This document shows, in pieces, positions 2,484-30,593 of a DNA stretch of 64,000 bases; within the stretch, counting starts at the first letter, position 1, and each line of letters starts with the position of its first letter. The DNA is from Escherichia coli (lineage in GTDB: Bacteria; Pseudomonadota; Gammaproteobacteria; Enterobacterales; Enterobacteriaceae), in assembly GCF_024298765.1 (NCBI RefSeq), contig NZ_CP101210.1; one strand, given 5' to 3'. Position numbers and translations under genes: made by a program. The notes under the pieces are model-generated. The model saw only the letters and a program-made list of their open reading frames with translations. It made no database searches and was not told the origin of the DNA.

Positions 2484-2494
2484 TCATGTGCGTA

Positions 2495-9801: not shown

Positions 9802-10032
9802 AACTTTATCAGTCCATAAAAATCAACGGAAGCGCAGATGGTTCACACGTCCATTACCAACTGATTGTTGTCACAACCGGTAACACAAAGTACTGAACGA
9901 CTGTTTTTAACAGCGGTGTTGCGTCATCCACCACCGTGAAACAACGCTGTGCAGGGAATCGTCCGCATCCCCATAACGGTCAAACATCGTGGCGTTGACA
10001 GAATGACCGACGAAAAGCCAGAAAGCGCTGAT

Positions 10033-10581
10033 TCACTGAGCTGTAATCAATGTACAGCGCTGTACCGGACGATGGGTAATGGCGGTCACAACCGGTAACC
10101 CCAGAGACAATGCGACTGTTTTTAACGCAACATACTGACCGGATGTATCACCCCGGGCAACCCGAAAACACCTTTCCACCCGGCATTGTCCGCCAGCACT
10201 TATCACCTGCCAGCTATGTTGCAGTAAATCCACCACTTGCGAACATTGTTCATCAACTGTGACACAGGCTCGCGGGTGACAAATACTCGTCTGGCTGAGC
10301 AGCAACAGGCATCGAATTGTTGCTCCTCCATGTTGTTCCCGCAACCAGCGTAATACCACCGACGATGATGGACTGGCAGTGTGATTGCTCTCAGTAATAC
10401 GTTCATGCAGTTGTCGATAAAAGGAAGTACAGAATGCATGAATCTGTTGCCCGTTGATATTTCCTTCTGCCGAATGGAGTGTGAAGTAAAATGCCAGCAA
10501 ATGCGGCCAGTGGTCCACCGCCTGCTGAACAAAACGCCGGATGTCTCCCGGCTCTGAAATTAAGGCTTCGGTTATTTGCAC
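10033..10581 (-). CDS. Hypothetical protein (possible remnant at the cdiA truncation junction)
   Basis: 182-aa ORF with overlapping alternative frame; no recognisable motifs; low coding confidence. Confidence 0.2.
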   Translation of the reverse strand: MQITEALISEPGDIRRFVQQAVDHWPHLLAFYFTLHSAEGNINGQQIHAFCTSFYRQLHERITESNHTASPSSSVVLRWLREQHGGATIRCLLLLSQTSICHPRACVTVDEQCSQVVDLLQHSWQVISAGGQCRVERCFRVARGDTSGQYVALKTVALSLGLPVVTAITHRPVQRCTLITAQ

Positions 10582-11026
10582 GAAATGTTCCTTTTCAAAC
10601 CCTGTTGGATTTTGTCAAGACGGTACAGACACAGTAAAGCGCGCATCAACACCTGAAAGGTACGATACAAACACAAGTTACAAACAATAAGAACGGAAGG
10701 ACAATTAATCAGTGAGGAATAATAACTAAATTAACCAAAAGAATGTTACTGACAATACCACCAATACTTAAATAGCAATATATTAATTAATGTAAGAACA
10801 GATGCCCGGTAAGACATATACACAATACATCCACAAACACACTCTTTTCATTAAATAAATCACCTGATTAAACCATGAAAGTGTGATGTAAGTCAAAATT
10901 ACTGACACAATCAATTGATAATGATTATCTCTATCATTATCGTGAAATTCGAGAATGAAAGGAGAAGTAGTCATTATAAGTCTTTTATAAATCGTCATCA
11001 TCATAGTAAAGTAGAACACTTTTTAT

Positions 11027-11485
11027 ATGAGTTACTATATGAAAATATACTGGACAAGAAAAAACATTCCTGAACTTTCAGCACTTCCACCTTCATTAAG
11101 AAAGAAAAATTTTACTGACGCATATAATGCTGCATCTTCCCATATCGAATACTGGATAGGTGCTGGCGTCTCATTTATCTCGATGATGATTTTATTCAAA
11201 GTATATGACTTTCTTTTACCCGCCCAAGATACTTTCCCGGGTGATATCATAAGAAGTTTATGTGTTGTGTGTCCATCCATATTAATCTGGTTTCAGTTTT
11301 CGGTATATGTCATGAGGAAATATTACAGACATATTCTGGAACGAGGTAAGGAAACCGAAACCATTTCAGAAAGGTTGATACGTGAGGCTGATACACGAGA
11401 ATATGAATTATGGCGTCCGGCCCATCGCTTTTTCTCCATTATTCTATTAGTTTGCATTCATTCACTGATAACAACTATAAAATAA
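11027..11485 (+). CDS. Hypothetical small membrane protein (microcin-locus accessory)
   Basis: 152-aa ORF with ATG start, two or more hydrophobic segments; AT-rich, adjacent to the CPBP gene and microcin genes. Confidence 0.4.
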   Translation: MSYYMKIYWTRKNIPELSALPPSLRKKNFTDAYNAASSHIEYWIGAGVSFISMMILFKVYDFLLPAQDTFPGDIIRSLCVVCPSILIWFQFSVYVMRKYYRHILERGKETETISERLIREADTREYELWRPAHRFFSIILLVCIHSLITTIK

Positions 11486-11584
11486 AAGTTATGGCTGTTC
11501 TGATACAGGAAAATAAACGTTCATTCTATGGTTACCTCTTCCTGTTATATAAAAGAATTTTAAACAACAAGTAAGGGAATATAA

Positions 11585-12271
11585 ATGGAAATAACAAAAA
11601 ATAAAAATGCAACTATAAAAAAACAGTCATCAGCCGGCTGCTTTTCAATGTTTACTTTATCATTTTCCATTACCTTTATTCCTGCATTTCTTACAAACAG
11701 GCAGGAACTTATATCCAGGGGGCTTCTTGTTCCAGCATTATTTCTTGCTGAATTTCTAATTCTTGTTCCACTGTATTTTATTTTCTTCCGAAAAAGAGAA
11801 GGATTAGGAAGAGGTTCTTTTCGACTGGATGTTTTTTTTACTCTTTTCTCTTTAATAATGATTATTCAGTTATTTGTCCCTTATCTGCTGGCAGTGAGGA
11901 AAACGGAAGAATGGATGATCTCGCAAATGTCTTTTTCCGGGGCCATTTTATGGATTAATATATTTTCTTCCGTACTTCTTGTTCCTGTATATGAAGAGAT
12001 TGTATTTCGAGGGTGTCTTTTTAACTCTTTTAAATTCTGGTTTAATGACAATATTTACATCTCTGCTATTGTAACATCAGTCATATTTTCTGCATTACAT
12101 CTACAATATACTGACTTTCGTACATTTTTGATGCTCTTTCTGATATCGTTAGTTCTTATCAGTGCAAAAATAAAGTCGAATGGCCTGTTAATGCCCATAT
12201 TACTTCACATGGCGATGAATGCAGTCATAACAGGAATACAATATACGTTACAATATCACATAACAGTCTGA
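11585..12271 (+). CDS. CPBP-family (CAAX protease / Abi) intramembrane metalloprotease-like protein, putative bacteriocin self-immunity
   Basis: 228-aa polytopic membrane protein with family motifs EEIVFRG, FSALHL and LLHMAMN; ATG preceded by AAGGGAA Shine-Dalgarno. Confidence 0.75.
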   Translation: MEITKNKNATIKKQSSAGCFSMFTLSFSITFIPAFLTNRQELISRGLLVPALFLAEFLILVPLYFIFFRKREGLGRGSFRLDVFFTLFSLIMIIQLFVPYLLAVRKTEEWMISQMSFSGAILWINIFSSVLLVPVYEEIVFRGCLFNSFKFWFNDNIYISAIVTSVIFSALHLQYTDFRTFLMLFLISLVLISAKIKSNGLLMPILLHMAMNAVITGIQYTLQYHITV

Positions 12272-12695
12272 AATTGTTATTATGAGATATCTATAACACC
12301 TGAAGTTGGAAAAAGAAGCAAATAATTCCTTATAAGGAATCGTTTACTAATATATTTAGATGATCTCATATTTGTTTATGATATACATCTGATTAAGATA
12401 TAATGGATTATAAATTACTCAAAGGTGAACAAATATCTTCGCCTTTTCTCGTAGAAAGAGACTTGAAACTTATAATACATCTATATAAACGTGATTTAAA
12501 TCACGATTTGCAGTAAAAGCAATTGGTATAATTCATTGGTATTACTATTATTTCATCTATTGCACGAACTATTTTACAACAATAAAAAAGATATACAAAC
12601 AGCAAGAAGTAAAAATATTCGGATAAATAAAAATTTTTGCTACCTTGGTTTCTATAGTCTTTATTTCTAAGTTTTTCATAAGCACTCAAAGACTC

Positions 12696-12881
12696 ATGTA
12701 TAGGGACGGTTTAATAATGAAACTATTTTTTTATTTCTCGTTGTTCTTTATAATACAACTTATAAATTCAGACTTAGACACATTAACCCTTTATCTTTTC
12801 ATAAAGAAAATAATTCTTTCGTTACTTGCGAGTGTACTGTTTTTATTTGTTTTATCTTTCTTTAATAAAAAGAGGAAATAA
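12696..12881 (+). CDS. Putative microcin immunity protein (small hydrophobic membrane peptide)
   Basis: Hydrophobic ORF ending 1 nt before the microcin-like ATG; the track starts it at a TTG (12645); in-frame ATGs at 12696 and 12717; resembles MchI/McmI-class immunity peptides in size and position. Confidence 0.5.
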   Translation: MYRDGLIMKLFFYFSLFFIIQLINSDLDTLTLYLFIKKIILSLLASVLFLFVLSFFNKKRK

Positions 12882-12882
12882 C

Positions 12883-13206
12883 ATGAGAAATATAACAACC
12901 GATGAACTTGCTTTAATACATGGTGCAGGATTAGATAAAGATGCATCCGTTGCAATAGGTACTGCGGCTGGTGGTTTTTTAGGTAAAGCAACAAAAATCC
13001 CTGGTGCGGATATAGCAGGAAGTGCAATTGGAGGATATATTGGAGGAGTTATTGCTGATGGTTCAAATAGGACAATAACAATACCATCAAACGGTATTAA
13101 CTATAATCCGGGTATAGGACTTGGAAGTTTTAATCCAAACTACAATGGAGGTTTATTAAACTCAGGATTTAACTCATCAACATCCTCTTCTAGTAGTGGA
13201 AGTTGA
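12883..13206 (+). CDS. Class IIb (siderophore-type) microcin-like precursor, not assignable to a named microcin
   Basis: 107-aa ORF; leader MRNITTDELALIHGA|G of double-glycine type; Gly/Ala/Ile-rich core; C-terminal Ser-rich tail SSTSSSSSGS as in salmochelin-modified microcins; AAGAGG Shine-Dalgarno overlaps the upstream stop; convergent on mchF. Confidence 0.7.
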   Translation: MRNITTDELALIHGAGLDKDASVAIGTAAGGFLGKATKIPGADIAGSAIGGYIGGVIADGSNRTITIPSNGINYNPGIGLGSFNPNYNGGLLNSGFNSSTSSSSSGS

Positions 13207-13215
13207 TTAATTTCT

Positions 13216-13253
13216 AAAGCAGCATAGCTTATTATGCAGCAATGCTGCTTTTA
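13216..13253 (+). terminator. Rho-independent terminator after the microcin-like gene
   Basis: AAGCAGCAT...ATGCTGCTT inverted repeat followed by TTTT, 10 bp after the stop. Confidence 0.45.
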
Positions 13254-13266
13254 GTGATATATTATC

Positions 13267-15369
13267 CTAATTTGTAATTCTAAAAATCCGATCAACTGTT
13301 CTTAAAGTTGTCTCTCTATGTGCAATAATCACCCGGGTGATATTCATCTTTTTTATAGCAGCATTCACGAAACGTTCACTTTCTGTATCAAGAGAACTTG
13401 TAGCCTCATCCATAAATAATATTCCAGGTTTCCGGTATAAAGCTCGGGCAATGAATATACGCTGTTTTTGACCGCCGGAAAGACCTTCCCCCAGTTCACC
13501 TATTAACGTTTCATACCCCATTGGCATTTTCATTATCACATCATGAATATGACTTGCTCTGGCACATTCTGTCATCCATTCGTCGTCTGTTTCTTCTGCA
13601 AACCCACAGATATTTTCACGAATTGATCCTGAAAATAGCCGGTCGTCCTGCATAACACAGGCTATCATACGGTGATAATTATTTATTCCAAGTTGACGTA
13701 TATCCGTGCCATTAACCAGTACTTTTCCACTATCTGGTTCAAACAGTCCACATAATACTTTCATTAATGTGGTTTTTCCGGCACCGGAGGCACCAGTTAT
13801 AGCCACACTTTCTCCCGGAGCCACAGACAAATTCAGACCACTGAATACCTGTGCTGACTGGCTGTCATACCGGTAGCTTAAATCAGTGGTTTCCAGTGAA
13901 ACCGGGCTCATGTCAGCAACGATTTCAATTTCCGGTTTCTTTTCTTCCTTTTCATGTAGTGCAATATCTGCAATGCGCTCATTATGCAGACTCATTATTC
14001 TCAGTTGAAGAAGAAAACTGGTCAGCGAAGCAACCCGATCCGAAAACTGCCCACGAAAAGAACCAAATGCCACAAACATCCCTATTGTCATCTGATTATC
14101 GATCACAAGGCTTGCACCCAGCCATAAAATCGCCACCTGATCACAGGCGGCAACAAAAGTATTTATCCCCCCGAAGAGCAAATCCATCCTGGTTAACTTA
14201 ATACCTGAATTGATCGCATCTATTTTCAGGTTAAGCCAGTGTGTTCCCCGAATCCCAGCCATACCCTGGATTTTTACCGTGGCAATACCATACAGGCTTT
14301 CCATAAAATAGGAGCTGGCCCGGGCCCCCCTGACAAGAGTTTCTTCCGATATTTGCCGGTAATAGCCGTATGTCACCAGACGAATAAGAACGTAAACCAT
14401 GGTAAAACCGAGCACTATCCAGGTAAGATATCCTCCATATAACAGCATCATCACAAAAACACCCACAACCATAATACTGTCCATGATTGCCCCAACAACA
14501 CAGGTGGTAAAGGTGGCCCTCAAAGTGTCAAGGGAGCCAAAACGCGACTGGATATCACCTAATTTACGGCGTTCAAAAAACGCCAGCGGCAGTCTGAGAA
14601 GATGGTTAAACAGACCCGACTGCCACTGTATATTGATGAGCGTGCTCATAACCAGTGAGGACCATGCACGCAGCATACTCACCGCGGCCCTGAGCAATAT
14701 AAAGAACATCAGGCCAGCAGAAATAAGCGTCAGCAGCCCTCTGTCCCCCGCCGGAATCGCATGATCCATAACCAGCTGAGTTCCCACCGGCATTACCAGA
14801 TTGATTGCTTCAATTACAACTGACAGACAGAAAATTTTCGCCAGTGTTCTTTTAATACCGTAAATACTGTTAATCAGTGAACGGAGACTTATGCGGGTCT
14901 GCTGGGTTTCCGCCAGGAATTCACTTCCGGGCCAGACCTCAAGTGCAATGCCCGTAAAATACCGGCTCATTTCCTCCCGACCGAGATATCTTCTGCCTCT
15001 GGCCGGATCATGCAGTACATAACGGTTACGCTTTACGCTGACCAGCACGACGAAGTGACTGAAATCCCAGTGGAGAATACACGGCATTTTGAGGGCACCA
15101 AGTTCATCCAGCTCCAGTGAAAGAGCCCGGGTGACCATCCCCAGCTGCTCCGCTATTCCATTGATTCCTGCAAGGTTTGCTCCACGGGCCGAGAGATTAA
15201 ACTTCCGGCGAAGAGATATCAGGTCAATATTCTTACCAAAATGACCGCATATCATTGCCAGGCAGGCCAGTCCACATTCAGCGGTCTCCGTCTGATGAAT
15301 AACCGGAACACGACGTCGCCAGCGCATATCAAGCTGATTTATAATTTGTCTGAAATTCCCGTTAGTCAT
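13267..15369 (-). CDS. mchF: Microcin ABC exporter with N-terminal C39 peptidase domain (CvaB/MchF family)
   Basis: C39 peptidase motif [15 protein letters not shown], six TM segments, Walker [13 protein letters not shown] signature LSGGQKQR. Track start 15387 is GTG; ATG at 15369 gives [10 protein letters not shown]. Confidence 0.9.
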
Positions 15370-16636
15370 TGAGCGGTCCTGTTGCACTGTGTTTCATGTC
15401 ATAGAAAGGAGAAAGCATCCACTGGTAAATACGCCTTTTTTCCAGAAATAGTGTACTTTCGGCTTTCATTCCATTTTCCAGAGGGAGGTATTTTTCGTCA
15501 TATCTGATAATCTGCTTTTCAGGCATCGCAATGACTTTATACCAGGGAACAGAGTCGCCCGGCGTATTCTGTGGTGCTCCCTTATAGGTCAACATTTCCT
15601 GTGTTGACGCAGGAGTCCTGGATATAGTTTTAACCGTAGCAGAGAACTGCCCAAATTTTTCTGCCGGAAAGGCTTCATAACGAATATTCACTTTGTCACC
15701 AGCCGAAATATAAGGAACAGCATCATTCGGGACCCAGAGAATAAGATAATAGTTTTCAATGTTCTCAGGAATAACCTGCAGAAGGCTGTCTCCGGTATTG
15801 ACCATTTGCCCGACAGTGACACTCAAGGAGTCAACTTTCCCGTCAGTCAACGCCCGGATAATGATTTCGCCCTCCACATCAGTGTTAACCAGTTCTTTCT
15901 GTAACTCATACCGTTGCAGTTCCATCTGGTAGATACGGTTATCAAAATCTGCAGCCTGAGTCTGAATCTGACTCTCCAGAGTGGTTATCTGCAGGGCATT
16001 CTGTTCGTTCTGTCCGCTCAGGCTGAGAAGATTGTTTTGTTGCTGATAATATAATGCCACCTGGTTAGTTAACTGATCTTTATTAATCAGCCCTTTTGCC
16101 TGATAGTTTCTGTAATTCTCCATATTGTTTTTCATTATTTTTATCCCTTCCTCTGCACGCTGTATAATATCTGATGAGCGACGAAACGCATCTGTGTATT
16201 GCAGGCGTTGTTTTTCCAGGGTATCTAGCGTTATTTTTTTACTTTCTTCCAGACGGGAAATAATGTTGTCCACACGAACCAACTGGTTTTCTATATCCCG
16301 ACGATGATTATCAGTGACAATACCACTACGTGTACTTTTACTGATGTCAATCAGATAAACAGGATCCCCTTTTTTTATCAACTGTCCTTCATGAACAAAC
16401 TGCCTGACAACAAATCCCTGTACACCTGAATATATATTGACAGCTCTTGGCCAGGTTGTGACCTCACCACTGACATTAACACGGCGGCTATAGGTACCAA
16501 CAATAATGAACATCAGAAATGCCGTAATAAACACTATGCTTCCCAGCATGATTAACCATAGTGGTATTCCGGGAAGTAATATTGCCCGTCCCTGCCACTT
16601 CATTTTTCTGTTTTCTAAAGCATCCTGACGAAACAA
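15362..16636 (-). CDS. mchE: Microcin secretion membrane-fusion protein (CvaA/MchE, HlyD family)
   Basis: 424-aa [30 protein letters not shown]..., single N-terminal TM plus coiled-coil; overlaps mchF start by 8 bp; first codon is TTG. Confidence 0.9.
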
Positions 16637-16788
16637 AATAGCTCCTCTTACTCACACTTTTCCTGTAATACCTTCACTGGTTAACCGAAATGCTATAATC
16701 AAAGCCAGAAAATATAGAGTCCTGTTAAAATAGTATCAGCGATGCATTTACCCCGTAATTTACAATTATCTCTGTATCTTCAGAGGTA

Positions 16789-17241
16789 CTACGTTTTATG
16801 CAGCCGCTCAGGGATGTATGTCACAATTTTCTTTCGCCTGCTTAACCATCGTACTTCTCCTTCTCCCCATGGCTGAAGCTGTATGAGATAGTCAATAACT
16901 TTTCGACCAAAGCCTGGTTTACAACAGAAATCCAGAATCCAAATCCTTCCATCTTCATTCCATTCAGACGGATGCAACCTGAATTCTGGATCCCTGAGCA
17001 GGCGCGCTTCTGTATCAGCCTCAAGATATGCCCAGGTAATATACGCCAGTGGAAAACCTCGTGAATCAAACAGGAATTTAATCTGATTATGCTGTATCGC
17101 ATATTCAGTCCAGTATTGAATGGTTAACACCGGATACAGACTGTAATTACGATTGTAGAGCATACAACTGACCGCAAAACCGATCTGTTCATAAACAGTC
17201 CATTCATCTTTTCCTCTGATGTTTTCCCTTATATAAGACAT
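16789..17241 (-). CDS. mchD: Microcin maturation protein MchD (MceI-like, HlyC-type acyltransferase family)
   Basis: 150-aa ORF with ATG start directly downstream of mchC; HlyC/toxin-activating acyltransferase-like sequence. Confidence 0.75.
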   Translation of the reverse strand: MSYIRENIRGKDEWTVYEQIGFAVSCMLYNRNYSLYPVLTIQYWTEYAIQHNQIKFLFDSRGFPLAYITWAYLEADTEARLLRDPEFRLHPSEWNEDGRIWILDFCCKPGFGRKVIDYLIQLQPWGEGEVRWLSRRKKIVTYIPERLHKT

Positions 17242-17266
17242 GATTACTATTTCCCTTATATATTTT

Positions 17267-18817
17267 TTACACTGTGTTTCTTATCGGTTCAAGATATCCA
17301 AATGCATCTCTGGAAAACTTAAGCATAAAATTTTTCATATCAGAAATTGCTTCTTGTAAAAAAAGGGGATCATCGCCATGATTATCCAGCAGGATGGCAA
17401 TTTTTTCGCACATATTCTCTTTCCTCAGCTCTTCCCTGGGTTGCAGCCTTTTCATGGTATGATGTTCAATTTCTTTCAGGAGTAATGAGGCATTTATCTG
17501 ACGTCTGGTACTGCCTTGCGTCAGCCAGTGGATGGCCTGGGAAAAACACTGTTGTGCAACGGTGAAATAAACATCATTCTTGATGCTACTATTCAGTGCC
17601 TGCTTTTGATTATGCCTATGATGGATTAGCGTCACAACCAACTTTTGCAATGGTGAACCATCCTGATTGACAATATCTTGGGCATGTGATTTCTCGCAGT
17701 ATTGATTGAGTAATGCAACAAAACTGTTAACCAGTTCTTTCAATATATCAGGTATCTCTTTTTGTGTTATAAATTCTCCAGGAATACCCAACAGTTCTAG
17801 ATAACAGTAATAACATGCTTCATGAAAAGTTTTCTGAAATATCTCCTCAACCTTCAAACGGGCTGCAAGAGTGAAGTCAGGGTCAAACATATATTTTCCG
17901 ATATACAAGCAGAGATCAGACAGCCCTTGCATAAGTACCATCGGTTCTTTTGCCAGTTCAGCTAATCTTAGTTTATACCCAAAATCAGCTGGGGAATCTC
18001 CCGGAAACAGACAACTGAGTCCGCTAAAATCCATTAATCTGCCATCCATTGCAATATTAGAAGGAGAAGTTGTCAATCTCAGGAAACGTGTTCGACAAAA
18101 TGCCATTTGCCAGGCCTCACGACGTGCCAGTTCACATAACCCCTCAATGCAATAAATCCGGGGATCAGTTCGTGCTTCAGCATCAATTTCTTCCGGTGGT
18201 ACAGGTAGATATCCTGGCAGCTTGTGGATCACAGATCTAACCCGACAGGCATCGTGAATTAACAGACTGGAATACTCCGGTTTTACTTGGAAGTAAGGTG
18301 CCCGTTCAAAATGCGCCGGACGAACAACAGGCTCACGTACCAACAGGGCTCTTCGTGATTTCCTACCGGAGCGCTCAAATGCCTTTTCAGTATAGAGATC
18401 TGTAAGTAAAACCGCCCGAACCCGCACAGCACTATAAGGTAATATTTGAGCCAGTACTTCTCCCCACAAAGCCTCATATATTGCATGAACAGCGCCGAGT
18501 GCACCATTAGAATGACGTTCGTCAGTACCTTCGCCAACCAACGGATTACTTCCTATTCCTTTAACCTGGTAGTTACCATCAAACCCACAACGTGCACCAC
18601 CTCCATTACGCTGAATACCACTGCCACCATAGCGCTCTGCATGGAACACTTTGGCAGAAGCTGTACTGCCAGGATCGATAATATAACTGCAGGCATTTTG
18701 CAGCTCGTCTGGATTTCTGACATCCTCTGCACACCAGATTAATGAGGCCTTGATCTGCCTGGCAGTGAAAGGCACCAGGTTTTCATTCAGTTCAGAAAGT
18801 GAACACTGATGACTCAT
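17267..18817 (-). CDS. mchC: Microcin maturation protein MchC (MceJ-like)
   Basis: 516-aa ORF with ATG start, immediately downstream of mchB in the mchIBCDEF order. Confidence 0.8.
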   Translation of the reverse strand: MSHQCSLSELNENLVPFTARQIKASLIWCAEDVRNPDELQNACSYIIDPGSTASAKVFHAERYGGSGIQRNGGGARCGFDGNYQVKGIGSNPLVGEGTDERHSNGALGAVHAIYEALWGEVLAQILPYSAVRVRAVLLTDLYTEKAFERSGRKSRRALLVREPVVRPAHFERAPYFQVKPEYSSLLIHDACRVRSVIHKLPGYLPVPPEEIDAEARTDPRIYCIEGLCELARREAWQMAFCRTRFLRLTTSPSNIAMDGRLMDFSGLSCLFPGDSPADFGYKLRLAELAKEPMVLMQGLSDLCLYIGKYMFDPDFTLAARLKVEEIFQKTFHEACYYCYLELLGIPGEFITQKEIPDILKELVNSFVALLNQYCEKSHAQDIVNQDGSPLQKLVVTLIHHRHNQKQALNSSIKNDVYFTVAQQCFSQAIHWLTQGSTRRQINASLLLKEIEHHTMKRLQPREELRKENMCEKIAILLDNHGDDPLFLQEAISDMKNFMLKFSRDAFGYLEPIRNTV

Positions 18818-19088
18818 CTGGCAGTATTCTCCGTTTCAATTTTCATAAAAGAGTGTTCATAAAAGAGCAAGTAAGTGTCCTGACAGCTTCTTCCTTATTA
18901 CAGTAAAACTCTATTAATTACACATAAATTAAAAAATTATTTATCAACGACTGTAAATCATATCTTCATCAGTAAAGTGTTGAACATAAAAACACACTTA
19001 TAAATGGATCTTCTATCTGTTTTAAACAAAAAGGATATATTTTACAGGTACTACCGAAAAAGTGCCTGTAAAATAAATAAAAATATAA

Positions 19089-19316
19089 TTAGCTACCGCC
19101 ACCAGCAGAAGAACTGGCACTACCACTTCCCACGGTCGAGCCAATTGCTGTTGTCAAACCGGCAGATACGGCTCCAACTACAACCCCAAGTGGACCACCA
19201 GGTATTCCGGCGAGAGCTCCAACAATAGCTGCAGCACCTGCAGCATTAGCTGAAGTCGCTGGCGCACCTCCCGCCCCGGAAATATATCTTAACTGTGATT
19301 CTGTTATTTCTGGCAT
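19089..19316 (-). CDS. mchB: Microcin H47 precursor
   Basis: 75-aa ORF MPEITESQLRYISGAGGAPATSANAAGAAAIVGALAGIPGG...GSGSASSSAGGGS: double-glycine leader, Ala/Gly-rich core and Ser-rich tail matching MccH47 as I recall it (recalled residue 2 is R, here P). Confidence 0.9.
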   Translation of the reverse strand: MPEITESQLRYISGAGGAPATSANAAGAAAIVGALAGIPGGPLGVVVGAVSAGLTTAIGSTVGSGSASSSAGGGS

Positions 19317-19343
19317 ATAAACTGCATATAAACTCCATCATAT

Positions 19344-19553
19344 TTAACTTCCGTTTTTCCAGTCTGACCAGACCAGAATCCTTCGAATCCCATGAATCAG
19401 CTCAATAAAACCAAGAAATATTATAAAGCTTAGAAAAACGTCAACATAAGAATTCCCTTCGCCAACAATCCGAAGGGATGAAAGTGAAACCAATAAGATA
19501 GTAATAGGTAAACTGAATATAGCCGTCAATTGGGACAGTTTTTTATAACTCAT
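19344..19553 (-). CDS. mchI: Microcin H47 immunity protein
   Basis: 69-aa hydrophobic two-TM peptide immediately upstream of mchB; ATG start. Confidence 0.85.
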   Translation of the reverse strand: MSYKKLSQLTAIFSLPITILLVSLSSLRIVGEGNSYVDVFLSFIIFLGFIELIHGIRRILVWSDWKNGS

Positions 19554-19964
19554 TAATCCCTACCTGTTGCTTTATTTTCATTATGAAAAGTTACCAAATC
19601 TTAGCACCTCAGTCAGGAGAGTCAGGTCATCGATAAAGAATATTCCAGTAGAGTGGCGCTCATGATCAAAGATAACAGCAAAGTTGATGACAGTGCTGAC
19701 CGACTGTCATTTACAGAAACCCTGTTTGTAGCAAATTCCATCTTACCTGACCTCACCCAGACAAAGACAAAAGAGAATGATTGTTATTTACTTTTCAAAA
19801 AAAGTGTCATATTGTCCATATAAAGTCAAGAGGTATTTTACGTTATGTCACTGATGCAATTGTTAGTCAGGATCTCATGGTTGTCGCTCATGTATAACCT
19901 GAGACTTGAACGCACACTAATAGCGCTGACGGTCATACATCGGGAAATGTGAGGAGGCATAAGA

Positions 19965-20210
19965 ATGAATTGTGATAATAATCACAGAAATGAAGAATTC
20001 ATTGTTACCTTTGATAAAGGCAACAAGCAAGACAATTCAAGACGAAAACACGATAATTTTCCTATAGAGGTAGAATCCTCCGTAGAGCAGGAGACACACT
20101 GTATCACAAATAATAAGTCAGCTTCCGGTATAGTAACACATGACTATGATGCCGATTATATTTGTGGTTGTGGTGAAATTATGTGTCCTGGTTGCGGTCA
20201 TGACCTATAA
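19965..20210 (+). CDS. mchS4: Small Cys-rich protein, mchS4-like
   Basis: 81-aa ORF with strong GAGGAGG Shine-Dalgarno 8 nt upstream; C-terminal CGCGEIMCPGCGH cluster; position matches mchS4 in the H47 locus order as I recall it. Confidence 0.5.
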   Translation: MNCDNNHRNEEFIVTFDKGNKQDNSRRKHDNFPIEVESSVEQETHCITNNKSASGIVTHDYDADYICGCGEIMCPGCGHDL

Positions 20211-20365
20211 CAAACATTTTTGCAAACTGATACCTGATCAGGTACAAGCCTGTTGATTATTATGCTGAATATTTCATGTTATAAAACCATCGATATAAAC
20301 ATTAACAAGAAAAAACATATATTGTTTATCTGAACATTTATCGATGGAAAACCAAAGGGGAAAGT

Positions 20366-20800
20366 ATGTATCTTACGAAAAAGATTATAATAAGTATGAT
20401 GTTTATATTACCATCTGCTGCATTTTCATCAGATCCACCTCCCCTTCAACAATCGTTAGAAAAAACAACCTATTTTTCTATAGGTATGAATGGGTTTATA
20501 GGCTATCAGAGCGAAGGGGAAAAATTATACACACACATTCTTACATTAGATAATCCCGAAGAGATATTTAAAAATATAATAGAAAATAGAAAGTCAACTA
20601 AGGAGTCTAAAATTTATGCTGCTTGTGGGCTATATTATTTAAACGTAGAAAATATAGAGTCATTGTTTAATGAAAATGATAAACAAGAATATATGTCTGT
20701 CTTAAGAGGGGATATTTTAACAAAAATAAAACTGAATGATATTCTGAATTCTGTGATAATAAATGGTTGCAACACCAAATTAATATCTGAACATAAATGA
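20366..20800 (+). CDS. mchS3: Signal-peptide protein upstream of the I47-like microcin gene (candidate mchS3)
   Basis: 144-aa ORF with N-terminal signal peptide MYLTKKIIISMMFILPSAAFS; AAAGGGG Shine-Dalgarno; sits where an immunity gene would be expected. Confidence 0.5.
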   Translation: MYLTKKIIISMMFILPSAAFSSDPPPLQQSLEKTTYFSIGMNGFIGYQSEGEKLYTHILTLDNPEEIFKNIIENRKSTKESKIYAACGLYYLNVENIESLFNENDKQEYMSVLRGDILTKIKLNDILNSVIINGCNTKLISEHK

Positions 20801-20816
20801 GCAGGAGGTTTTTAAA

Positions 20817-21053
20817 ATGAGAGAAATATCAGATCACATGCTTGATTTCGTGAAAGGAGGGATGAATCTTAATGGATTACCTAGTTCTACTAATGTAATA
20901 GATCTACGAGGAAAAGATATGGGAACATATATTGATGCTAATGGAACATGCTGGGCTCCGGGTACTCCATCCATCATCATGTATCCGGGGGGAAGTGGAC
21001 CTTCTTATAGTATGAGTAGTTCCACATCCAGCGTAAACAGCGGCACATCATAA
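20817..21053 (+). CDS. mchS2: Microcin I47-like precursor
   Basis: 78-aa ORF MREISDHMLDFVKGG|MNLNGLPSSTNVIDLRGKDMGTYIDANGTCWAPGTPSIIMYPGGSGPSYSMSSSTSSVNSGTS: double-glycine leader, Ser-rich tail; closely resembles MccI47 as recalled; GCAGGAGG Shine-Dalgarno. Confidence 0.75.
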   Translation: MREISDHMLDFVKGGMNLNGLPSSTNVIDLRGKDMGTYIDANGTCWAPGTPSIIMYPGGSGPSYSMSSSTSSVNSGTS

Positions 21054-21085
21054 ATACCCTCCGGCATGGCCGGAGGGTATTTATG
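21054..21085 (+). terminator. Rho-independent terminator after mchS2
   Basis: Perfect 11-bp stem TACCCTCCGGC/GCCGGAGGGTA with 3-nt loop, then T-rich tract, starting 1 nt after the stop. Confidence 0.5.
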
Positions 21086-21337
21086 ATGTGCCTGTAAGAC
21101 TCTACTTCTGTCGTCTCTTTACAAAGGCATATGATCTGTCATTTTGTACCAGACATCTTAACGAGAGCCTTTTCATATATTACTTACATACGTGAAATCT
21201 ACAGTATAAAGCAAAAATTTTATTAAACCTGTTTTATATTTATCATCAATACAACAGATTTAATTCCGGAAAGTCACTCATCATCCCTTGAATGAACGTC
21301 ATTTGATGTATTATTCTTACACTTGGATTAATTTAAG

Positions 21338-22612
21338 ATGATACCTATGAAAAACTATCTTTTCCAGACTCCCGAAGATATTTGTGTACAGTTAAAAAAA
21401 ATGACACATCCTGTCACAATAAGAACAACAGATATTGCTAATTTCTGGCACTATCTTGAGTCAGCAACACTTCCAGTGATCACAAAAAGCACCACTACAG
21501 AAAATCGGGAGGTTACATTTCTGTGGCGCTCAGAGAAAGCACTGCAAGGCGTATATCTTCGCCTGAATCGTGTTACAGATAAAAAAGACGTCAAAAAAGG
21601 ACTAATGACTCATATCCCTTCGACAGATATCTGGATGCTGACACTGGTGTTACCAGCTTCATATCGGGGCTCATACTCATTTATAGAAATTCCCACAGAT
21701 ATGACACAAAAAGACATATTTCAACTAGGAAGTCGCTTCTCTCCATTACCCGGTAAATCTGATCCATTTAACAAAACAGCAGAAATAAATATACGAGGAT
21801 TCGGAGAATCAGTCCTTTCTCTTGATATGGCTCCTGAACAAAAGGAATGGGATGATACTTCCCATAAATGTACAGGTATTCTTTCAATATTACATTCCTT
21901 TGTTGCAGGATATCAACGCCGGATTCGTTTATATTTCCCCCTGAATCCAACATCAGTACCTCTTGGATTACTTGTGTTACCTGATGCTGAAACATGGTTT
22001 GACCGGATAGATATTACCCGGGCATTAGATATGGCCATCACCACTGGTCGTATCACGCCAATGGCAATTATGGGGATAGACAATATTAATGAATCTGATC
22101 GTATGAATATACTGGGAGGCAATAAAGAACTCATCTTTGATATAGCGGAAAATCTGATACCCCAGTTATACAGAGACTATCCGGATATCGTATGGGCTGG
22201 TCGCTCTAATACTGTACTGGCCGGGCAGAGCCTCGGTGGAGTGACAGCACTGATGGCAGCTATATATGCGTCGACAACATTTGGTACAATCATTAGTCAC
22301 TCACCTTCAATGTGGTGGAACCCTGACCAGGGCAGCCCGATCTTGTTTACTGAGAATAATACCTCCTGGGTAAGTGAGCAGATACTTTCAGCGCCTCCGA
22401 AAGATGTAAATATCCGACTTGGAGTCGGTTCTTTAGAAGGTACAACCGTCTCACATGTTCAGCGATTGCATCATTCGTTAATCGCAGCTGGTTTGGAAAG
22501 TAACCTCACTGTCTATACCGGTGGTCACGATTATGCTTGGTGGCGCGGAGCAATTATTGATGAATTAGCAAATTATAATTGCAGGAAGGTATCAAATAAT
22601 AACTCTGTGTAA
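21338..22612 (+). CDS. mchS1: Enterobactin/salmochelin esterase homologue (IroD/Fes-like)
   Basis: 424-aa ORF with serine-hydrolase motif GQSLGG; position between mchS2 and mchA in the H47 locus. Confidence 0.8.
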   Translation: MIPMKNYLFQTPEDICVQLKKMTHPVTIRTTDIANFWHYLESATLPVITKSTTTENREVTFLWRSEKALQGVYLRLNRVTDKKDVKKGLMTHIPSTDIWMLTLVLPASYRGSYSFIEIPTDMTQKDIFQLGSRFSPLPGKSDPFNKTAEINIRGFGESVLSLDMAPEQKEWDDTSHKCTGILSILHSFVAGYQRRIRLYFPLNPTSVPLGLLVLPDAETWFDRIDITRALDMAITTGRITPMAIMGIDNINESDRMNILGGNKELIFDIAENLIPQLYRDYPDIVWAGRSNTVLAGQSLGGVTALMAAIYASTTFGTIISHSPSMWWNPDQGSPILFTENNTSWVSEQILSAPPKDVNIRLGVGSLEGTTVSHVQRLHHSLIAAGLESNLTVYTGGHDYAWWRGAIIDELANYNCRKVSNNNSV

Positions 22613-22753
22613 AATATCGTTTTATCGTCCGATAACTCTTTCTGCAATATTATTATGGGAGACTGTCTCATTTATTTAGTGATGTCCTTCATTTATGTGA
22701 TGAAGGACATTATATTACTCATAACATTTCTCGTTGAAAATTTCAGCAATACG

Positions 22754-23878
22754 CTACAATTGTTTCCCGTTGTTTTTTAATTTTCTCATCAAAACCTCTG
22801 CGATCTCTGCAGGAGTGGGTTGTTCAGCCATTTCAGCGGCTACCTGATCTGAACAGAAGCGTAGTGAATCATCATAAAGCAGGCGATTTACCAAATCACT
22901 GGTCAGTCCATGCTTGTCCGGAATAATCCCACACCCACGCTTCGCAACAATTTCTGCATTAACAGAGCGATCTGCACCTTCTCCAAACACAATCTGTGGT
23001 ATTCCACTATACAGCGCTGTCAGGGTATTACCTGCGCCACCGTGATGAATAAATCCATCAGCTCCATTAAGGAATACACCCATAGGTATCCAGTCAACCA
23101 GACGTACATTTGATGGTAGTTTTCGTAATCCAGTACGAGCATTTATTGCAAGTTGCAAAATGATATCAGCATCAACTTCATTTGCTGAATCCATAACCCA
23201 TGAAATCAGCTCCAGACCATCAACCATTGGTTTTACAGTGCCAAGGCTGATGAGTAAACGTTTCCGATCAGAATCCCTGTCCCACCATGTTTCCTTTACA
23301 GCACCTCCGTTATAAGGAATATATCGCATTGAGATAATCGGTTCTTCAGCATTTTTAAGAATGCTCATACTTGGGGGAGCAACATCAATCCATGCTAAAT
23401 CACATAGTGGACCGCTGACTCCATGCCGCCTGTAAGCATTGCTTAAAGAACGGTTTAACATCTGAATATGGGCAGATGTATGCGCGAATCCAACAGCCAG
23501 CATCACTGAAGAAATTCTATATTTAGCAGCAACCAATGGGCCTGCCGGACCAAGCGGGGGATAGACTATTAAATCTGGCCTCCATTTTCCTGCAAAATCG
23601 ATGAGGTTATCTGCCATTTCATCGCTAAAAAAAGAGAAATGACCAATAATATTACTTTTTTTCCTCAACTCTTCCTGATGACGATATCCAGCCTCTGAAT
23701 CTAAACTTGGAGCTGCATCAAAAACAACCAGTCCAGCTTCTGCTGCTTTATTCGCGAATTTGCCAGCGCTACTAATTACTACATCATGTCCGATTACACG
23801 AAAGGCCTGAGCCAGAGAAATCAATGGGTATAACAAACCGTACAGCGGAGGGCCAATAAAAAGAATACGTTTTCGCAT
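22754..23878 (-). CDS. mchA: Enterobactin C-glycosyltransferase homologue (IroB-like)
   Basis: 374-aa GT-B glycosyltransferase-like ORF (MRKRILFIGPPLYGLLYP..., C-terminal HHGGAGNT nucleotide-sugar motif). Confidence 0.85.
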   Translation of the reverse strand: MRKRILFIGPPLYGLLYPLISLAQAFRVIGHDVVISSAGKFANKAAEAGLVVFDAAPSLDSEAGYRHQEELRKKSNIIGHFSFFSDEMADNLIDFAGKWRPDLIVYPPLGPAGPLVAAKYRISSVMLAVGFAHTSAHIQMLNRSLSNAYRRHGVSGPLCDLAWIDVAPPSMSILKNAEEPIISMRYIPYNGGAVKETWWDRDSDRKRLLISLGTVKPMVDGLELISWVMDSANEVDADIILQLAINARTGLRKLPSNVRLVDWIPMGVFLNGADGFIHHGGAGNTLTALYSGIPQIVFGEGADRSVNAEIVAKRGCGIIPDKHGLTSDLVNRLLYDDSLRFCSDQVAAEMAEQPTPAEIAEVLMRKLKNNGKQL

Positions 23879-24554
23879 TAAAAAAGTCCGTCTTCTGCTT
23901 ACCTGTTTATTTTTCTATCGCTAAGAAAACATAATTAATATTATTTTTATGTGAGCTTATGCACAAAAATAACAAAGTATCTTATCTTCTGGTAGAGATA
24001 CAGGATACAGTTTGTAGGAGCTTTCTTTTTTTGAACAATGATTTGCAGGACAGTTATGCCAACCTAGCAGAATCAGTATCACAACAATAAATGACAGATC
24101 ATACCTGAAATTTGAATTAACAGGCATCATGAATGTCAATAGTCTAAGCGGTTACTACTTACATCGCTTGCATAAATACTAAACACTGACTAGAAAAGTA
24201 TTGGATAACCCCGTCACTAAAAGTAACACTTCGGTTATTTGCTCGGAATGTATCAACGCCAAGATTGTTAGCCGTTACGCCTTATATCACTGGCGCTGAC
24301 AAATGTTTCTTTTCTAATTTACTGAACCGGCGCAGACTTACAGAAAAACACTCCGGCACCGGTGTAATGCCAGTTATAAACAATGTGAATGGAATGACGA
24401 ATCAGTCAGGAAAGAGCTACAATCTGCTGGCTGACCGGAGAGGGTCAGCAGGAAGATGAACGGTAATGTCGCCAGCACCAGGGGCAGGGCCGGGTTCCAC
24501 AATACCAGCGCCGGCATTTTGCACATTGCCAGCGTACCGGCATCACAACACGTT

Positions 24555-24791
24555 TCATGCAGCTGCTCCTCGTGATTCCTCAATTCGCTGCTGCATCCAC
24601 TGCTCCACTTCACTTTTGTACCAGCGGCTGCTGCGGCCCAGCTTGATGGGTTTCGGGAAATGGCCTTCACTGATCAGCTTGTAAAACCATTTATCTGTCA
24701 TACCGGTGAAACTGGTGATGTAGTTCATGTCGATCAGGGGATCGTCGGCACGCAGCAACACGCAGTCGTGGCCTGTCATTGAGGTCAACAT
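24555..24791 (-). CDS. alpA: AlpA-family phage/island transcriptional regulator
   Basis: 78-aa ORF with the AlpA-type HTH signature ...ISEGHFPKPIKLGRSSRWYKSEVEQW. Confidence 0.75.
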   Translation of the reverse strand: MLTSMTGHDCVLLRADDPLIDMNYITSFTGMTDKWFYKLISEGHFPKPIKLGRSSRWYKSEVEQWMQQRIEESRGAAA

Positions 24792-24859
24792 GGTCAGAAT
24801 ATCCTCTGTGAGATTTATGAAGGTTGTGCGAATGCGGGGAAAGGTGCTGAGCCGTATTC

Positions 24860-25567
24860 TCAGAACGGTCCTGCAGATCCGGGATAGCCGGGATTACCGG
24901 CGAGGCAACGGGCTTCCGGATCGCACACACCACGACGATCGCGGGCGAAATCACTGAACGCCCAGATCAAATCTTTGAGGATGTCTTCGCAGTCCGGTGA
25001 ACGACTGTCCAGCACCACATCCCGGGTTATCTGTTTCTGGTACGGTGCCGCTTCCCCCGGTGACGCGAAGCCCAGTACGTTGCTCCAGGCATCCAGAATC
25101 AGCCGGTCCAGTTCGGGGCCGTCGAAATACTCCTGTCTGACGCACAGCACCACGTGGTATTCCGGCTTTTCCGGATGACGGGTCAGGAGCCAGCAAAGGT
25201 CGCGTCCGGGTTTCGCATTCATCAGCGCACTGACGGTTTCGATAAAATCCATACCAAACCAGGTCTGTCTGCTGTTGAAGGCGTTGTCATGTTCCCACGG
25301 CAGACGAAGCAGGATCCGCCGTATCCGTGAGCCGGACTGCTCACGCAGCGCACGCTCAAGGACGCCGATGACTTTGTTCTGATAAGATGGCCAGAAGGGT
25401 GCCAGGCTATAGTCGAAATAAGGAATAGCATTCATAAGATATGTTCCGTTATGCGCAGCCCACAATGCGTCCTGCCCGTGAATGAGCTGACGTGTTATGG
25501 CTTGCGGATGAGATTGATGGAATAAGTGAAGAACTGAAGCAGAACGGGAAGATAAGGGACAGAACAC
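24860..25567 (-). CDS. Inovirus Gp2-family (YfjJ/YagK-like) protein, paralogue 1; start uncertain
   Basis: Similarity to the two other paralogues in the window; track start is GTG, first in-frame ATG is at 25435 (MNAIPYFDYS...). Confidence 0.55.
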   Translation of the reverse strand: MFCPLSSRSASVLHLFHQSHPQAITRQLIHGQDALWAAHNGTYLMNAIPYFDYSLAPFWPSYQNKVIGVLERALREQSGSRIRRILLRLPWEHDNAFNSRQTWFGMDFIETVSALMNAKPGRDLCWLLTRHPEKPEYHVVLCVRQEYFDGPELDRLILDAWSNVLGFASPGEAAPYQKQITRDVVLDSRSPDCEDILKDLIWAFSDFARDRRGVCDPEARCLAGNPGYPGSAGPF

Positions 25568-25681
25568 CGGATTCAGGTTCAGGATGAATGATCTCCGTTG
25601 ACTTCAGTTCACATCATTAATCAATGCGGTAAGTTTTTACCGACGGAGTGTTTCCAGGAGCGGAGGCTCAGGCCTTAAGCT

Positions 25682-26248
25682 TCAGAAGTGAGGCTTACGA
25701 GGACGCCCTGCAGCAGGACGTTCAGGAACTTCATTGCAGCCGTAGGCACACAGCCCGTCTTTTTGTTCTTCTTTCGCCAGATAATGCAGGGCACCGCGAA
25801 TATTATCGATGCTTTCAGGATCGTTGTGGCGCACAGGAATGTTGATGTTGTATGCATAATGCGGCTGATATGTACAGCGGTGCGCCGAACCACAGTTATA
25901 CGTAATTGCCTGCCAGCATTCCGCTATCCGCTCCGCAAAGGGATATATTTTTTTAACCCTCTGACGATCGATCCAGAAAACGACATGCGCATGAAAACCA
26001 TGATCAGCCGTCCATTCAATCACCCAGAAGAAACCAACGATATTTTCAAATTGTTCCACCTGCTCCAGCAGCATACGCAACTGTAATTCAAGCCAGCGAT
26101 GATCAGGTTGTAAGAAATCGGGCGTATCTTTCCTGTAGAAGAAATCCATCCGTAAGGCCCGCAGGCAGGAATAGCGTGCCATCATTTGATTGATGTGATT
26201 GTCAAGTAAAGCGGTAAAAAACCAGTTTGGTGTGTAAGATTTAGGCAT
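25682..26248 (-). CDS. Inovirus Gp2-family (YfjJ/YagK-like) protein, paralogue 2
   Basis: 188-aa ORF with family-typical core (...GFFWVIEWTADHGFHAHVVFW...); tandem with paralogue 1 downstream of alpA. Confidence 0.6.
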   Translation of the reverse strand: MPKSYTPNWFFTALLDNHINQMMARYSCLRALRMDFFYRKDTPDFLQPDHRWLELQLRMLLEQVEQFENIVGFFWVIEWTADHGFHAHVVFWIDRQRVKKIYPFAERIAECWQAITYNCGSAHRCTYQPHYAYNINIPVRHNDPESIDNIRGALHYLAKEEQKDGLCAYGCNEVPERPAAGRPRKPHF

Positions 26249-27665
26249 GTTGATGACTCCTGAAAGTTAATGATGTTTTAAGCTCTGTGAGCGAATTAAT
26301 GCTTTCGCTCATAATCAGATCTAAAACGGTAATAACTTACAGATGGTATTTATCAGGCATGCTGTAACAGAATGGATACGACGGATTATTAACGACACAC
26401 AGCGTTGTGCTGAAGGGTATGAGTTATCTGATGGCATTGTCTATAGAGATGAGATAAACGAGGTGCGAAGAAAATACAGATTCAATACAACACAGTGAAA
26501 TACAGAAAAATACGAACTGTAATCCCGCTGCCAGGCGGTTAGGAAACATATTACAACTATAAGCTCATGATTTGTAAATTTGCTCTCAGTGAGTCTGAAA
26601 AAACGTTTATAAGGTCACCACAATAAACTCACACGCGCTTATTCAATCTGTTTTCCAGGATATGAACGTTAACGACACACGATAGCATAAGACAACATAC
26701 AATGGATGAATAATTTTCACCCAGTACCTTAAACAATACAACCGGCAACAAATATAATCAGAAATTCACTCTGTTAATTCTGTTGTTTATCCTGCGCTGT
26801 TAAACATGACGGAATCATGGATACCTTATCAAAGAGTAAACATTCAGTTAATCTGTGATGACAGAGAAATTGTTTCCAACCAGAATAGTTAAAACACTTC
26901 AGATAAACAATCATTGTTAAGCAAATACAGTTCATGATGGATAAGATTAAAATCAATTGCTGTTTCACTGAAAATGAGAACAGATGGATATCAGCAATAG
27001 CGTAGTAGAGAATAACTTATCCGAACATCATATGAGTTACAGTAATTATGATTGAGGGGGATGGAGTGGATACGATAACAAGAGTAAATAAAGACAGAGT
27101 AAAAGTAAAGGGCAAGTGTAATAATAGTAATAAACCTAAATTAAAATTATCCATGTTTGATGTAAAAATAATAATATACTGACAACCATGAAGGTAAGAA
27201 AAAGAGAGTGCAGGTATCAGGAAGATCTCAGGATATGAAGATTCCCACAGCACAGATTTAAAATTAGTCGAATATAATAAATTTAAAAACCTTAATTAAA
27301 ATGTAATCTCATCCATGGTTAACATGCTCCTGAAAAGGAAAGTTACAAATACCGTATGCTACCAACTAATTACAACAATGATATATGTACATTCAGTAAG
27401 AATACAGATAAAATATTAATACCAACTTCCAGTATCAAGATCGTATCGCGAACTTCAGATGCGCTATGAGGCAGTTCAATTTTTAACTTTCGTTTTCCTC
27501 TTCCTCCCTGGCTTCATATGCATAAGCGACTTGAAAGACCCGATGATAGTTACAATTTCAGGTTGTGGCATGACGATCAATTTGTAACTGAAACAATGAA
27601 CGGTAACGCTGCCATATAAACATCAAAATGCGAGCATTACAGCGACATTGAACCGATTAGATGTA

Positions 27666-29861: not shown

Positions 29862-30593
29862 TCACCTGCCATCCAGCAAACGCCCCGGCCCACGACTGCA
29901 ACCATAATTACGTTGCCCGGAACCGTCATGCTGCTTCGTCTCATATTTCACGAGATAACTGGCTCTGTTCCGGGCTTTCTGCATCGCTTCCACATCACCA
30001 CGCTTGATCCAGAGAACAGCGGCTTCACCAGACTTTTTGTCTGAAGCCTTCCAGGTATCAGAACATCCACCCGACAAAGGCGTGTCATCGGAAGAAGGGC
30101 GAACATCAGACGATGCTGGTTTACGGGAAGGCGTCCACCTGGAAAAATGGACCAGGCCATCGCCTTGCCAGGGCTCAAGATGCAGGGCGCTGCACCATGC
30201 CTCCTGGATCATCGTCGCCAGCGAAGACGGTTCGCTGAAATCCCCGAGCGAGCACCAGGTATCTTTGTTGAGCAGTAATATCACGTGATAATGTTTCCTG
30301 CCATACATCTTGCCGAACTCCCGGCACCAGAAATAACCCAGGCTGGTTGCATGCACACGCTGATTGGCACATCTTTTTTTCCGCTGGTAAGCCTGAATTT
30401 TGGCTTTCAGGGATGCAAAAAAACGAGAAATCACCGCTGAATCCGGATCGGGATCCATGATGGTGACAGGCATATACTCAGGGAAACGTAAATCCACCCG
30501 GATTAACGAGACGGCACGGTGCTGCGCCAGGGCACTGTCGAGAAGGCTGTCAAAACGGGATAACCAGTAAGCATTGTGTATTGGTTGATTCAT
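29862..30593 (-). CDS. Inovirus Gp2-family (YfjJ/YagK-like) protein, paralogue 3
   Basis: 243-aa ORF, ATG start, conserved HYHVILLLNKD segment; conserved leader motif immediately upstream (30601-30648). Confidence 0.7.
   Translation of the reverse strand: MNQPIHNAYWLSRFDSLLDSALAQHRAVSLIRVDLRFPEYMPVTIMDPDPDSAVISRFFASLKAKIQAYQRKKRCANQRVHATSLGYFWCREFGKMYGRKHYHVILLLNKDTWCSLGDFSEPSSLATMIQEAWCSALHLEPWQGDGLVHFSRWTPSRKPASSDVRPSSDDTPLSGGCSDTWKASDKKSGEAAVLWIKRGDVEAMQKARNRASYLVKYETKQHDGSGQRNYGCSRGPGRLLDGR

Follow-up and report, generated by a model that had tools for sequence, protein, structure and literature searches.

What does the DNA between a microcin gene cluster and an alpA gene represent when neither an integrase nor an attachment site seems to accompany them? 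The question arises from a 676-bp gap in a stretch of Escherichia coli DNA of 64,000 nucleotides, analyzed here as a whole (the window). We conclude that this gap is very probably the right-hand junction of a ~13.7-kb H47-type siderophore-microcin islet that lies within a larger pheU pathogenicity island. This junction has already been described, and the finding is real but ordinary.

Composition and Content of the Gap

The gap and the genes next to it are arranged as follows.

22754-23878, minus strand: mchA-like glycosyltransferase gene, whose start codon borders the gap
23879-24554: the gap, 676 bp, between the mchA-like glycosyltransferase and AlpA-family genes
23879-24209: first part of the gap, islet DNA 5' of mchA, 34-39% GC
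24210-24412, plus strand: second part of the gap, hybrid repeat (the "attL" of Azpiroz et al.)
24413-24554: third part of the gap, native 3' flank of alpA, 49-54% GC, overlapping the 50-aa ORF
24374-24526, minus strand: hypothetical ORF of 50 aa inside the gap, from the RefSeq annotation of identical sequences
24555-24791, minus strand: AlpA-family helix-turn-helix (HTH) protein of 78 aa (Pfam Phage_AlpA, PF05930, E = 2e-10, 40.8 bits, cut-off 21)
24860-25435, minus strand: hypothetical protein of 191 aa, between Gp2 and alpA
25682-26248, minus strand: Gp2 or YagK/YfjJ-like protein of 188 aa

The coordinates 23879-24554 given for the gap in the initial annotation are exact; the gap runs from the start codon of the mchA-like gene to the stop codon of alpA, and the RefSeq annotation of a 100% identical sequence (E. 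coli FDAARGOS_1287) has the same two genes at its borders. Because the order on the minus strand is Gp2, hypothetical gene, alpA, and gap, the gap lies 3' of alpA and not 5' of it. The GC content climbs from ~35% to ~54% over 24200-24400.

The absence of an integrase from the gap, as initially noted, was upheld by tblastn and by a Pfam scan of the reading frames of the gap. The island's own 421-aa pheU integrase gave nothing above noise when compared with the gap by TBLASTN, its best match (E = 0.13 against 1 kb) being located inside mchA, and no Pfam family matched at E ≤ 10 any of the ten longest stop-to-stop frames, a set that covers every frame of at least 39 aa in the gap. No RNA family was detected by Rfam at E ≤ 1 in the region 23000-26500, and family support for the 50-aa ORF at 24374-24526 was absent in both Pfam and NCBIfam.

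The segment 23879-24209 is presumably the mchA promoter region. A Fur box upstream of mchA was considered and rejected, its best match (13 of 19 positions at 23930-23948) being weak and within the window background. A promoter and terminator scan of 23700-24900 gave counts not above those of shuffled sequences; one terminator-like hairpin (24373-24353, minus strand) is located within the right repeat copy and may terminate the alpA operon. In the RefSeq record of the ACN002 chromosome, an IS2 copy (record positions 4538246-4539474) is found in the islet-internal part of the gap, at ~23900-24236; the window is without IS2.

Imperfect Direct Repeats Bracket the Microcin Cluster

The gap had been described as free of any att repeat, and the finding of an att site there had been named as an observation that would speak against a fusion of islands. 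This description proved wrong, since 24210-24412 repeats 10547-10719 imperfectly in direct orientation, and an att site is thus present in the gap. In a gapped local alignment the two segments score 76, while 200 shuffles gave 25.2 ± 3.5 with a maximum of 37. A 42-nt direct-repeat core (10547-10588 versus 24210-24251) has 81% identity at a spacing of 13,663 bp, and the two repeat copies bracket the ~13.7-kb microcin H47 cluster.

10033-10581, minus strand: UCP030791 family putative phage-derived protein of 182 aa, the native gene left of the insertion site (RefSeq annotation)
10547-10719, plus strand: left repeat copy (the "attR" of the published island), from the repeat search, local alignment, and empty-site alignments
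10720-24209: body of the H47-type islet, 26-50% GC, delimited by RefSeq annotation, NCBIfam, the mchB translation, and composition

Both copies are composite. In the left copy, the left part is identical to empty sites, and the right part is a diverged homologue carried by the islet. The right copy has its islet-derived part on the left and its native part from ~24325 rightwards; the islet-derived part includes, on the minus strand, what is left of a UCP030791-like N-terminus (EQITEVLL versus VQITEALI). The left repeat covers the initial 35 nt of the UCP030791 gene, and the 182-aa protein has no Pfam or NCBIfam match. In gene terms, the site of the islet is the ~266-bp spacer between alpA and the UCP030791 gene, together with the first codons of the latter.

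The Junction Is That of the H47 Genomic Island

The MccH47 system (E. coli H47, AJ009631) was described as a 12.6-kb "H47 genomic island" of 12,635 bp (Azpiroz, Bascuas & Lavina, PLoS One 2011, PMC3191183). That island is flanked by imperfect direct repeats of 148 and 144 bp with 76% identity, encodes no recombinase, and is also found in GI-2 of E. coli 042 (PMC3191183). The repeats share four identity segments of 13, 11, 20, and 17 bp, which are the crossover sites (Azpiroz & Lavina, PeerJ 2017, PMC5426353). The window was searched, with up to 3 mismatches, for the published primers out1, out2, in1, and in2 (sequences from PMC3191183), the orientation of the window being opposite to that in the paper of Azpiroz et al.

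10443-10465, plus strand: primer out2 site, 1 mismatch
24010-24032, plus strand: primer in1 site, 1 mismatch
24442-24463, minus strand: primer out1 site, 1 mismatch

The sites of out1, out2, and in1 have the positions and orientations expected from the paper; in2 had no match in the window within 3 mismatches. E. coli 042 has the same genes around the same cluster at the same junction, and its repeats are 75.5% identical over 143 columns, with exact runs of 17, 20, 11, and 13 bp that equal the published values. Since the 042 repeats with their identity runs and three of the four primer sites match the published island, the gap contains the "attL" of that study. The missing integrase is therefore expected and is no sign of rearrangement or loss, because the junction is the published H47 attachment region and the lack of an integrase is a published hallmark of the islet.

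The window and the H47 island share the microcin gene set, the insertion site between the UCP030791 gene and alpA, long imperfect direct repeats, the lack of an integrase, and hybrid empty sites. They differ in size, the repeat spacing of the window being 13,663 bp versus 12,635 bp for the published island, and at the left end, where the window has an intact CPBP gene together with the 107-aa microcin-like ORF and strain H47 has truncated mcmI/mcmA. Further differences are the diverged center of the gap copy, which is 43 nt longer, the survival of only one of the four identity segments (14 of 17 bp), and the absence of the in2 site.

Related arrangements are known. Siderophore-microcin clusters have been reviewed as small genomic islands with such repeats, "an islet inside an island" (PMC7472721). 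A truncated cluster, found at serX on genomic island I of Nissle 1917, CFT073, and ABU83972 (Poey 2006, cited in PMC7472721), is likewise a microcin islet nested in a tRNA-borne island; as described in that review, the Nissle 1917-type cluster is shorter, has transposase genes on one side, and is without modification genes. The decayed islet of O157:H7 and other EHEC, in the ter/iha island, resembles the window in its gap-repeat variant (99% over 102 nt), its mchA-like gene, and its position beside an alpA-like gene; it differs in the loss of most of the cluster (CPBP gene through esterase gene) to an IS1 element, and in an alpA flank of 81% identity.

The Window Carries a Common, Diverged Repeat Variant

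Aligned over 232 columns with gaps, the two repeats of the window share only about 49% identity. Compared with 042, the center of the gap copy has been exchanged for diverged sequence and is 43 nt longer. The two copies now share a single identity run of at least 8 bp, CTTCGGTTATTTGC (14 bp); it represents 14 of the 17 bp of one published identity segment, and the other three segments are lost. The variant center (24236-24345) is matched at ≥99% in 616 records and with at least 80% query coverage in 635 genomes, and its carriers include O157:H7, O145, O111, O103, and O104:H4. The shortfall in identity segments is thus a feature of the variant and is no bar to membership in the H47 island. With three of the four crossover segments lost, the published excision behavior may not apply to the variant of the window; given the diverged center of the gap copy and the single 14-bp run, the islet in the window is probably fixed in place.

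Empty Sites Define the Insertion and Join the Flanking Blocks

A synthetic empty-site junction, made by joining window positions 9800-10588 to 24252-25100, was searched in 5,426 complete E. coli genomes. It is contiguous in about 490-504 of them, with a best match of 94.1%. Strain 4/0 shows the gene order cdiI-cdiA-cdiB-hyp-hyp-UCP030791 gene-[266 bp]-alpA-hyp-Gp2. AVS0967 has the same arrangement (cdiA-cdiB-hyp-hyp-UCP030791-[266-bp site]-alpA-hyp-Gp2), and its block runs on through the full CP4-like set (genes for GTPase, DUF932, antirestriction, RadC-like, CbeA/CbtA, and DUF4942 proteins) to an integrase remnant and cadC. Because it ends in the same integrase remnant and cadC, the empty-site backbone of AVS0967 lies at pheU.

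Alignments show that the empty sites (attC) are hybrids: they match the left copy as far as about ...CCTGTTGAATTTTGTCAA, and beginning with CACCGGTGTAATGCCAGTTATAA they match the gap copy. In 042 and O157:H7, the islet-internal stretch of the gap (23879-24209) has identities of 97.9% and 96.7%, respectively; empty-site genomes lack it. The alpA flank is 99.3% identical to the window in 042, 90.5-90.7% in the empty-site strains, and 81% in O157:H7. Such uniform identity of the islet part (96.7-97.9%) next to an alpA flank that varies between 81 and 99% shows the boundary to be a real recombination junction. That occupied sites always share their flanks was also considered and is ruled out by the O157 flank, only 81% identical. 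The islet is found at different loci, namely, pheU in ACN002, GI-2 in 042, and the ter/iha island in O157. AVS0967 has an occupied microcin junction elsewhere in its chromosome (96.6% identical) in addition to the empty site in its pheU island, and donor and target sites thus coexist in one genome.

These genomes bear directly on the proposal that an hsd/cdiA/microcin block and a CP4-like block had been fused. The cdi and alpA/Gp2/CP4-like blocks adjoin each other directly in the ~500 empty-site genomes, which contradicts their being fused islands. Comparison with strains carrying only one of the two modules at pheU had been suggested; AVS0967 instead has the cdi genes and the alpA/Gp2/CP4-like backbone together at the pheU site, without the microcin cluster. 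Because the cdi and alpA/CP4-like blocks are contiguous where the islet is absent, the hsd/cdi and CP4-like blocks form one backbone into which the microcin cluster alone was inserted. Cargo insertion, the other origin proposed initially, is thus correct for the microcin cluster (~10.6-24.3 kb) and incorrect for the hsd/cdiA block, which is not part of the insert.

Gene Content of the Islet

The islet contains a 152-aa ORF, a CPBP protease, a 107-aa microcin-like ORF, mchF, mchE, mchD, mchC, mchB, mchI, a probable mchS2, mchS3, an mchS1-like esterase, and an mchA-like glycosyltransferase. The genes for MccH47 production, immunity, maturation, and export are accordingly present (mchA, mchS1, mchS3, mchI, mchB, mchC, mchD, mchE, and mchF). 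The NCBIfam match to MchS3 (E = 2.4e-40) is above cut-off, and an enterochelin-esterase-like match was also obtained. Annotation, and tblastn with a P4-type integrase over the whole window, revealed no integrase or excisionase gene inside the islet.

Two features at the left of the islet are set apart from the published island.

11027-12271, plus strand: left end of the islet, with an intact membrane-like ORF of 152 aa and an intact CPBP/Rce1-like protease gene of 228 aa
12883-13206, plus strand: ORF of 107 aa

The 107-aa ORF, annotated everywhere as a hypothetical protein, is found on at least 1000 contigs. Its product combines a leader of the double-glycine type (MRNITTDELALIHGAG) with a core rich in Gly and a C-terminus rich in Ser (SSTSSSSSGS), and thereby looks like a putative class IIb siderophore-microcin precursor. 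Its Pfam match to MccV is weak (E = 0.025), and MccH47 itself obtains E = 0.022. It received no NCBIfam name, and a literature search for the C-terminal peptide string retrieved no paper. The 228-aa CPBP/Rce1-like protease resembles a bacteriocin immunity protein. In E. coli 042 this left-end position holds frameshifted remnants, and in O157:H7 a copy truncated by IS1.

The Surrounding pheU Island

ACN002 matches the window at 100% over 1-12000, and its tRNA-Phe gene (pheU) with an adjacent intact tyrosine integrase is located ~9 kb to the left of window position 1. The opposite end of the island is within the window.

41892-41913, plus strand: attR of the whole pheU island, 22 nt of the tRNA-Phe 3' end with a 1-nt deletion (TTCGATTCCGAGTCCGGCACCA)
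42111-42267, plus strand: C-terminal remnant (aa 359-420) of a P4-type integrase, tblastn E = 5e-8 and RefSeq annotation, equivalent to K-12 yjdQ

This attR was found by blastn against the pheU region of K-12; a substitution-only search found nothing. It is followed by the tRNA terminator, the yjdQ-like integrase remnant, and cadC, as in K-12, and in the tblastn search 42111-42267 is the only integrase-like sequence in the whole window.

The cdi genes of this island are incomplete. cdiA (6337-9801, minus strand) is truncated to a C-terminal fragment of 1154 aa, and the ACN002 annotation records its N-terminus as missing. About 9.4 kb, comprising the cdiA N-terminus, cdiB, and two hypothetical genes, is missing at about 9760-10030 and present in FDAARGOS_1287 and others; among the matches listed, ACN002 alone has this ~9.4-kb deletion in common with the window.

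The alpA and Gp2 Genes Compared with CP4-57

The initial annotation had presumed that alpA and Gp2-family genes normally sit beside a P4-type integrase. This premise is weak, as no integrase adjoins alpA in the contexts inspected: no tyrosine integrase is annotated within 9-20 kb of the alpA/Gp2 lineage in FDAARGOS_1287, 042, O157:H7, or 4/0, and in ACN002 the nearest intact integrase is ~33 kb from alpA, at pheU.

The 78-aa AlpA-family protein is 25% identical to K-12 AlpA (BLASTP) and has a weak match to an "excise" domain, below cut-off. The 188-aa Gp2-like protein reaches 26.1 bits for YagK/YfjJ (PF11726; cut-off 27.8) and 20.5 bits for REP_ORF2-G2P (PF23343; cut-off 25.8), and is about 21% identical to K-12 YfjJ. 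A second protein of this type is encoded further to the right.

29862-30593, minus strand: second Gp2 or YagK/YfjJ-like protein, 243 aa, passing the Pfam cut-off with 122 bits

BLASTP comparisons among the 188-aa Gp2-like, 191-aa hypothetical, 182-aa UCP030791, and 243-aa Gp2-like proteins gave marginal similarities, the best with E = 0.004. Inspection of the translations by eye revealed HUH-like (HAH, HYH) and YxxK-like (YLAK, YLVK) motifs in both Gp2-like proteins. Motifs of these two kinds are typical of rolling-circle Rep or relaxase-type nucleases.

CP4-57 of K-12 (ssrA-intA-yfjH-alpA-yfjI-yfjJ) and the window are alike in having an AlpA-family HTH protein near a Gp2/YagK-YfjJ-like protein on a tRNA-borne island. 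They differ in gene order, which is reversed in the window (Gp2, 191-aa hypothetical, and alpA on the minus strand), and in yfjI, a DUF3987 primase-like gene of CP4-57 for which no DUF3987 match was found among the scanned ORFs beside alpA in the window. The integrase of CP4-57 is adjacent to alpA, whereas that of the window lineage is ~33 kb away at the tRNA gene.

How the Islet Was Inserted and Whether It Moves

The present analysis demonstrates the repeat and the primer sites, the hybrid nature of empty sites, the lack of any integrase, and the direct adjacency of the cdi and alpA/CP4-like blocks in genomes without the islet. As for the insertion itself, the islet would have arrived in circular form, and the site carried on this circle would have recombined with its chromosomal counterpart. 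The target would have been the site in the alpA/UCP030791 spacer, and the result would be the islet as it now lies between two diverged site copies, at 10547-10719 and 24210-24412.

Published experiments detected excision and integration by PCR, independently of RecA and with the crossover in short identity runs (PMC3191183, PMC5426353). Also dispensable were all 16 site-specific recombinases of K-12 and many genes of homologous recombination, and excision in K-12 could still be detected by PCR with flanks of just 71 and 95 bp (PMC3191183, PMC5426353). The confinement of crossovers to identity runs points to short-homology recombination (PMC3191183, PMC5426353). Because the deleted product, or plasmid, was never recovered in vivo (PMC5426353), PCR template switching between the repeats may contribute to the published signal.

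The islet may no longer be self-mobile, the repeats being the relic of one ancient integration after which it spread vertically or by homologous recombination of larger backbone segments, with the empty sites representing an older haplotype; this is a serious possibility, though short of a probable one. The distribution of identities in the alpA flank (99.3% between the window and 042, 90.5-90.7% for empty sites) is consistent with such a history, as are the best empty-site match of only 94.1% among the 5,426 genomes, the single 14-bp identity run left in the variant of the window, the occurrence of occupied and empty sites in the one genome of AVS0967, and the failure to recover an excision product in vivo (PMC5426353). 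However, the islet end in O157:H7 is 96.7% identical beside a flank diverged to 81%, and the islet occupies different islands and loci (pheU in ACN002, GI-2 in 042, ter/iha in O157), both of which argue against this history.

It is improbable that the islet is an active site-specific element whose long repeats are recognized by a recombinase from elsewhere, either of the host or from the AlpA/hypothetical/Gp2 operon. The insertion site is always directly downstream of the Gp2-hyp-alpA operon in the contexts inspected, the AlpA protein has its weak excisionase-domain match, the 188-aa Gp2-like protein has HAH and YLAK motifs, and the islet adjoins flanks as diverged as 81%, all of which would suit such an element; but PCR-detected excision in K-12 with 71 and 95 bp flanks and in mutants of 16 recombinases, and crossovers in identity runs only, which point to short-homology recombination, speak against it (PMC3191183, PMC5426353), as does the low identity (about 21%) of the Gp2-like protein to K-12 YfjJ. 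That the Gp2-hyp-AlpA operon in particular is the trans-acting function that moves the integrase-less H47 islet is more doubtful still, and we consider it very unlikely. The published work in K-12 did not include knockouts of AlpA, YfjJ, or YagK (PMC3191183, PMC5426353), and these distant K-12 paralogues could have stood in for the operon there.

Hardly credible is the proposal of tandem tRNA-borne islands (hsd/cdi/microcin followed by CP4-like), with the integrase and att site beside alpA deleted and the gap as the scar: AlpA and Gp2-like genes do adjoin an integrase in CP4-57 and the island is a mosaic with two Gp2-like genes, pseudogenes, and IS elements, but the gap holds no integrase fragment by tblastn or in its Pfam-scanned frames, neither an integrase remnant nor an internal pheU-type repeat lies between the modules, the cdi and alpA blocks are adjacent in ~500 microcin-free genomes, also at pheU, and the gap is 3' of alpA while the CP4-57 integrase is on its 5' side. 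The sole copy of the pheU 3' end in the window is that at 41892-41913, at the far end of the island, and with no other pheU-type repeat in the window nothing suggests tandem islands.

Significance

For the identification of the gap as the right-hand junction of an H47-type islet, the significance beyond correct annotation is small. A useful by-product of the analysis is that the repeat variant of the window is common and has three of the four crossover segments gone. If excision is driven by short-homology recombination, the variant of the window is expected to excise far less readily; on the 2017 paper's argument that short perfect homology is required, it would be largely immobile. pheU islands with and without the islet are available for direct comparison.
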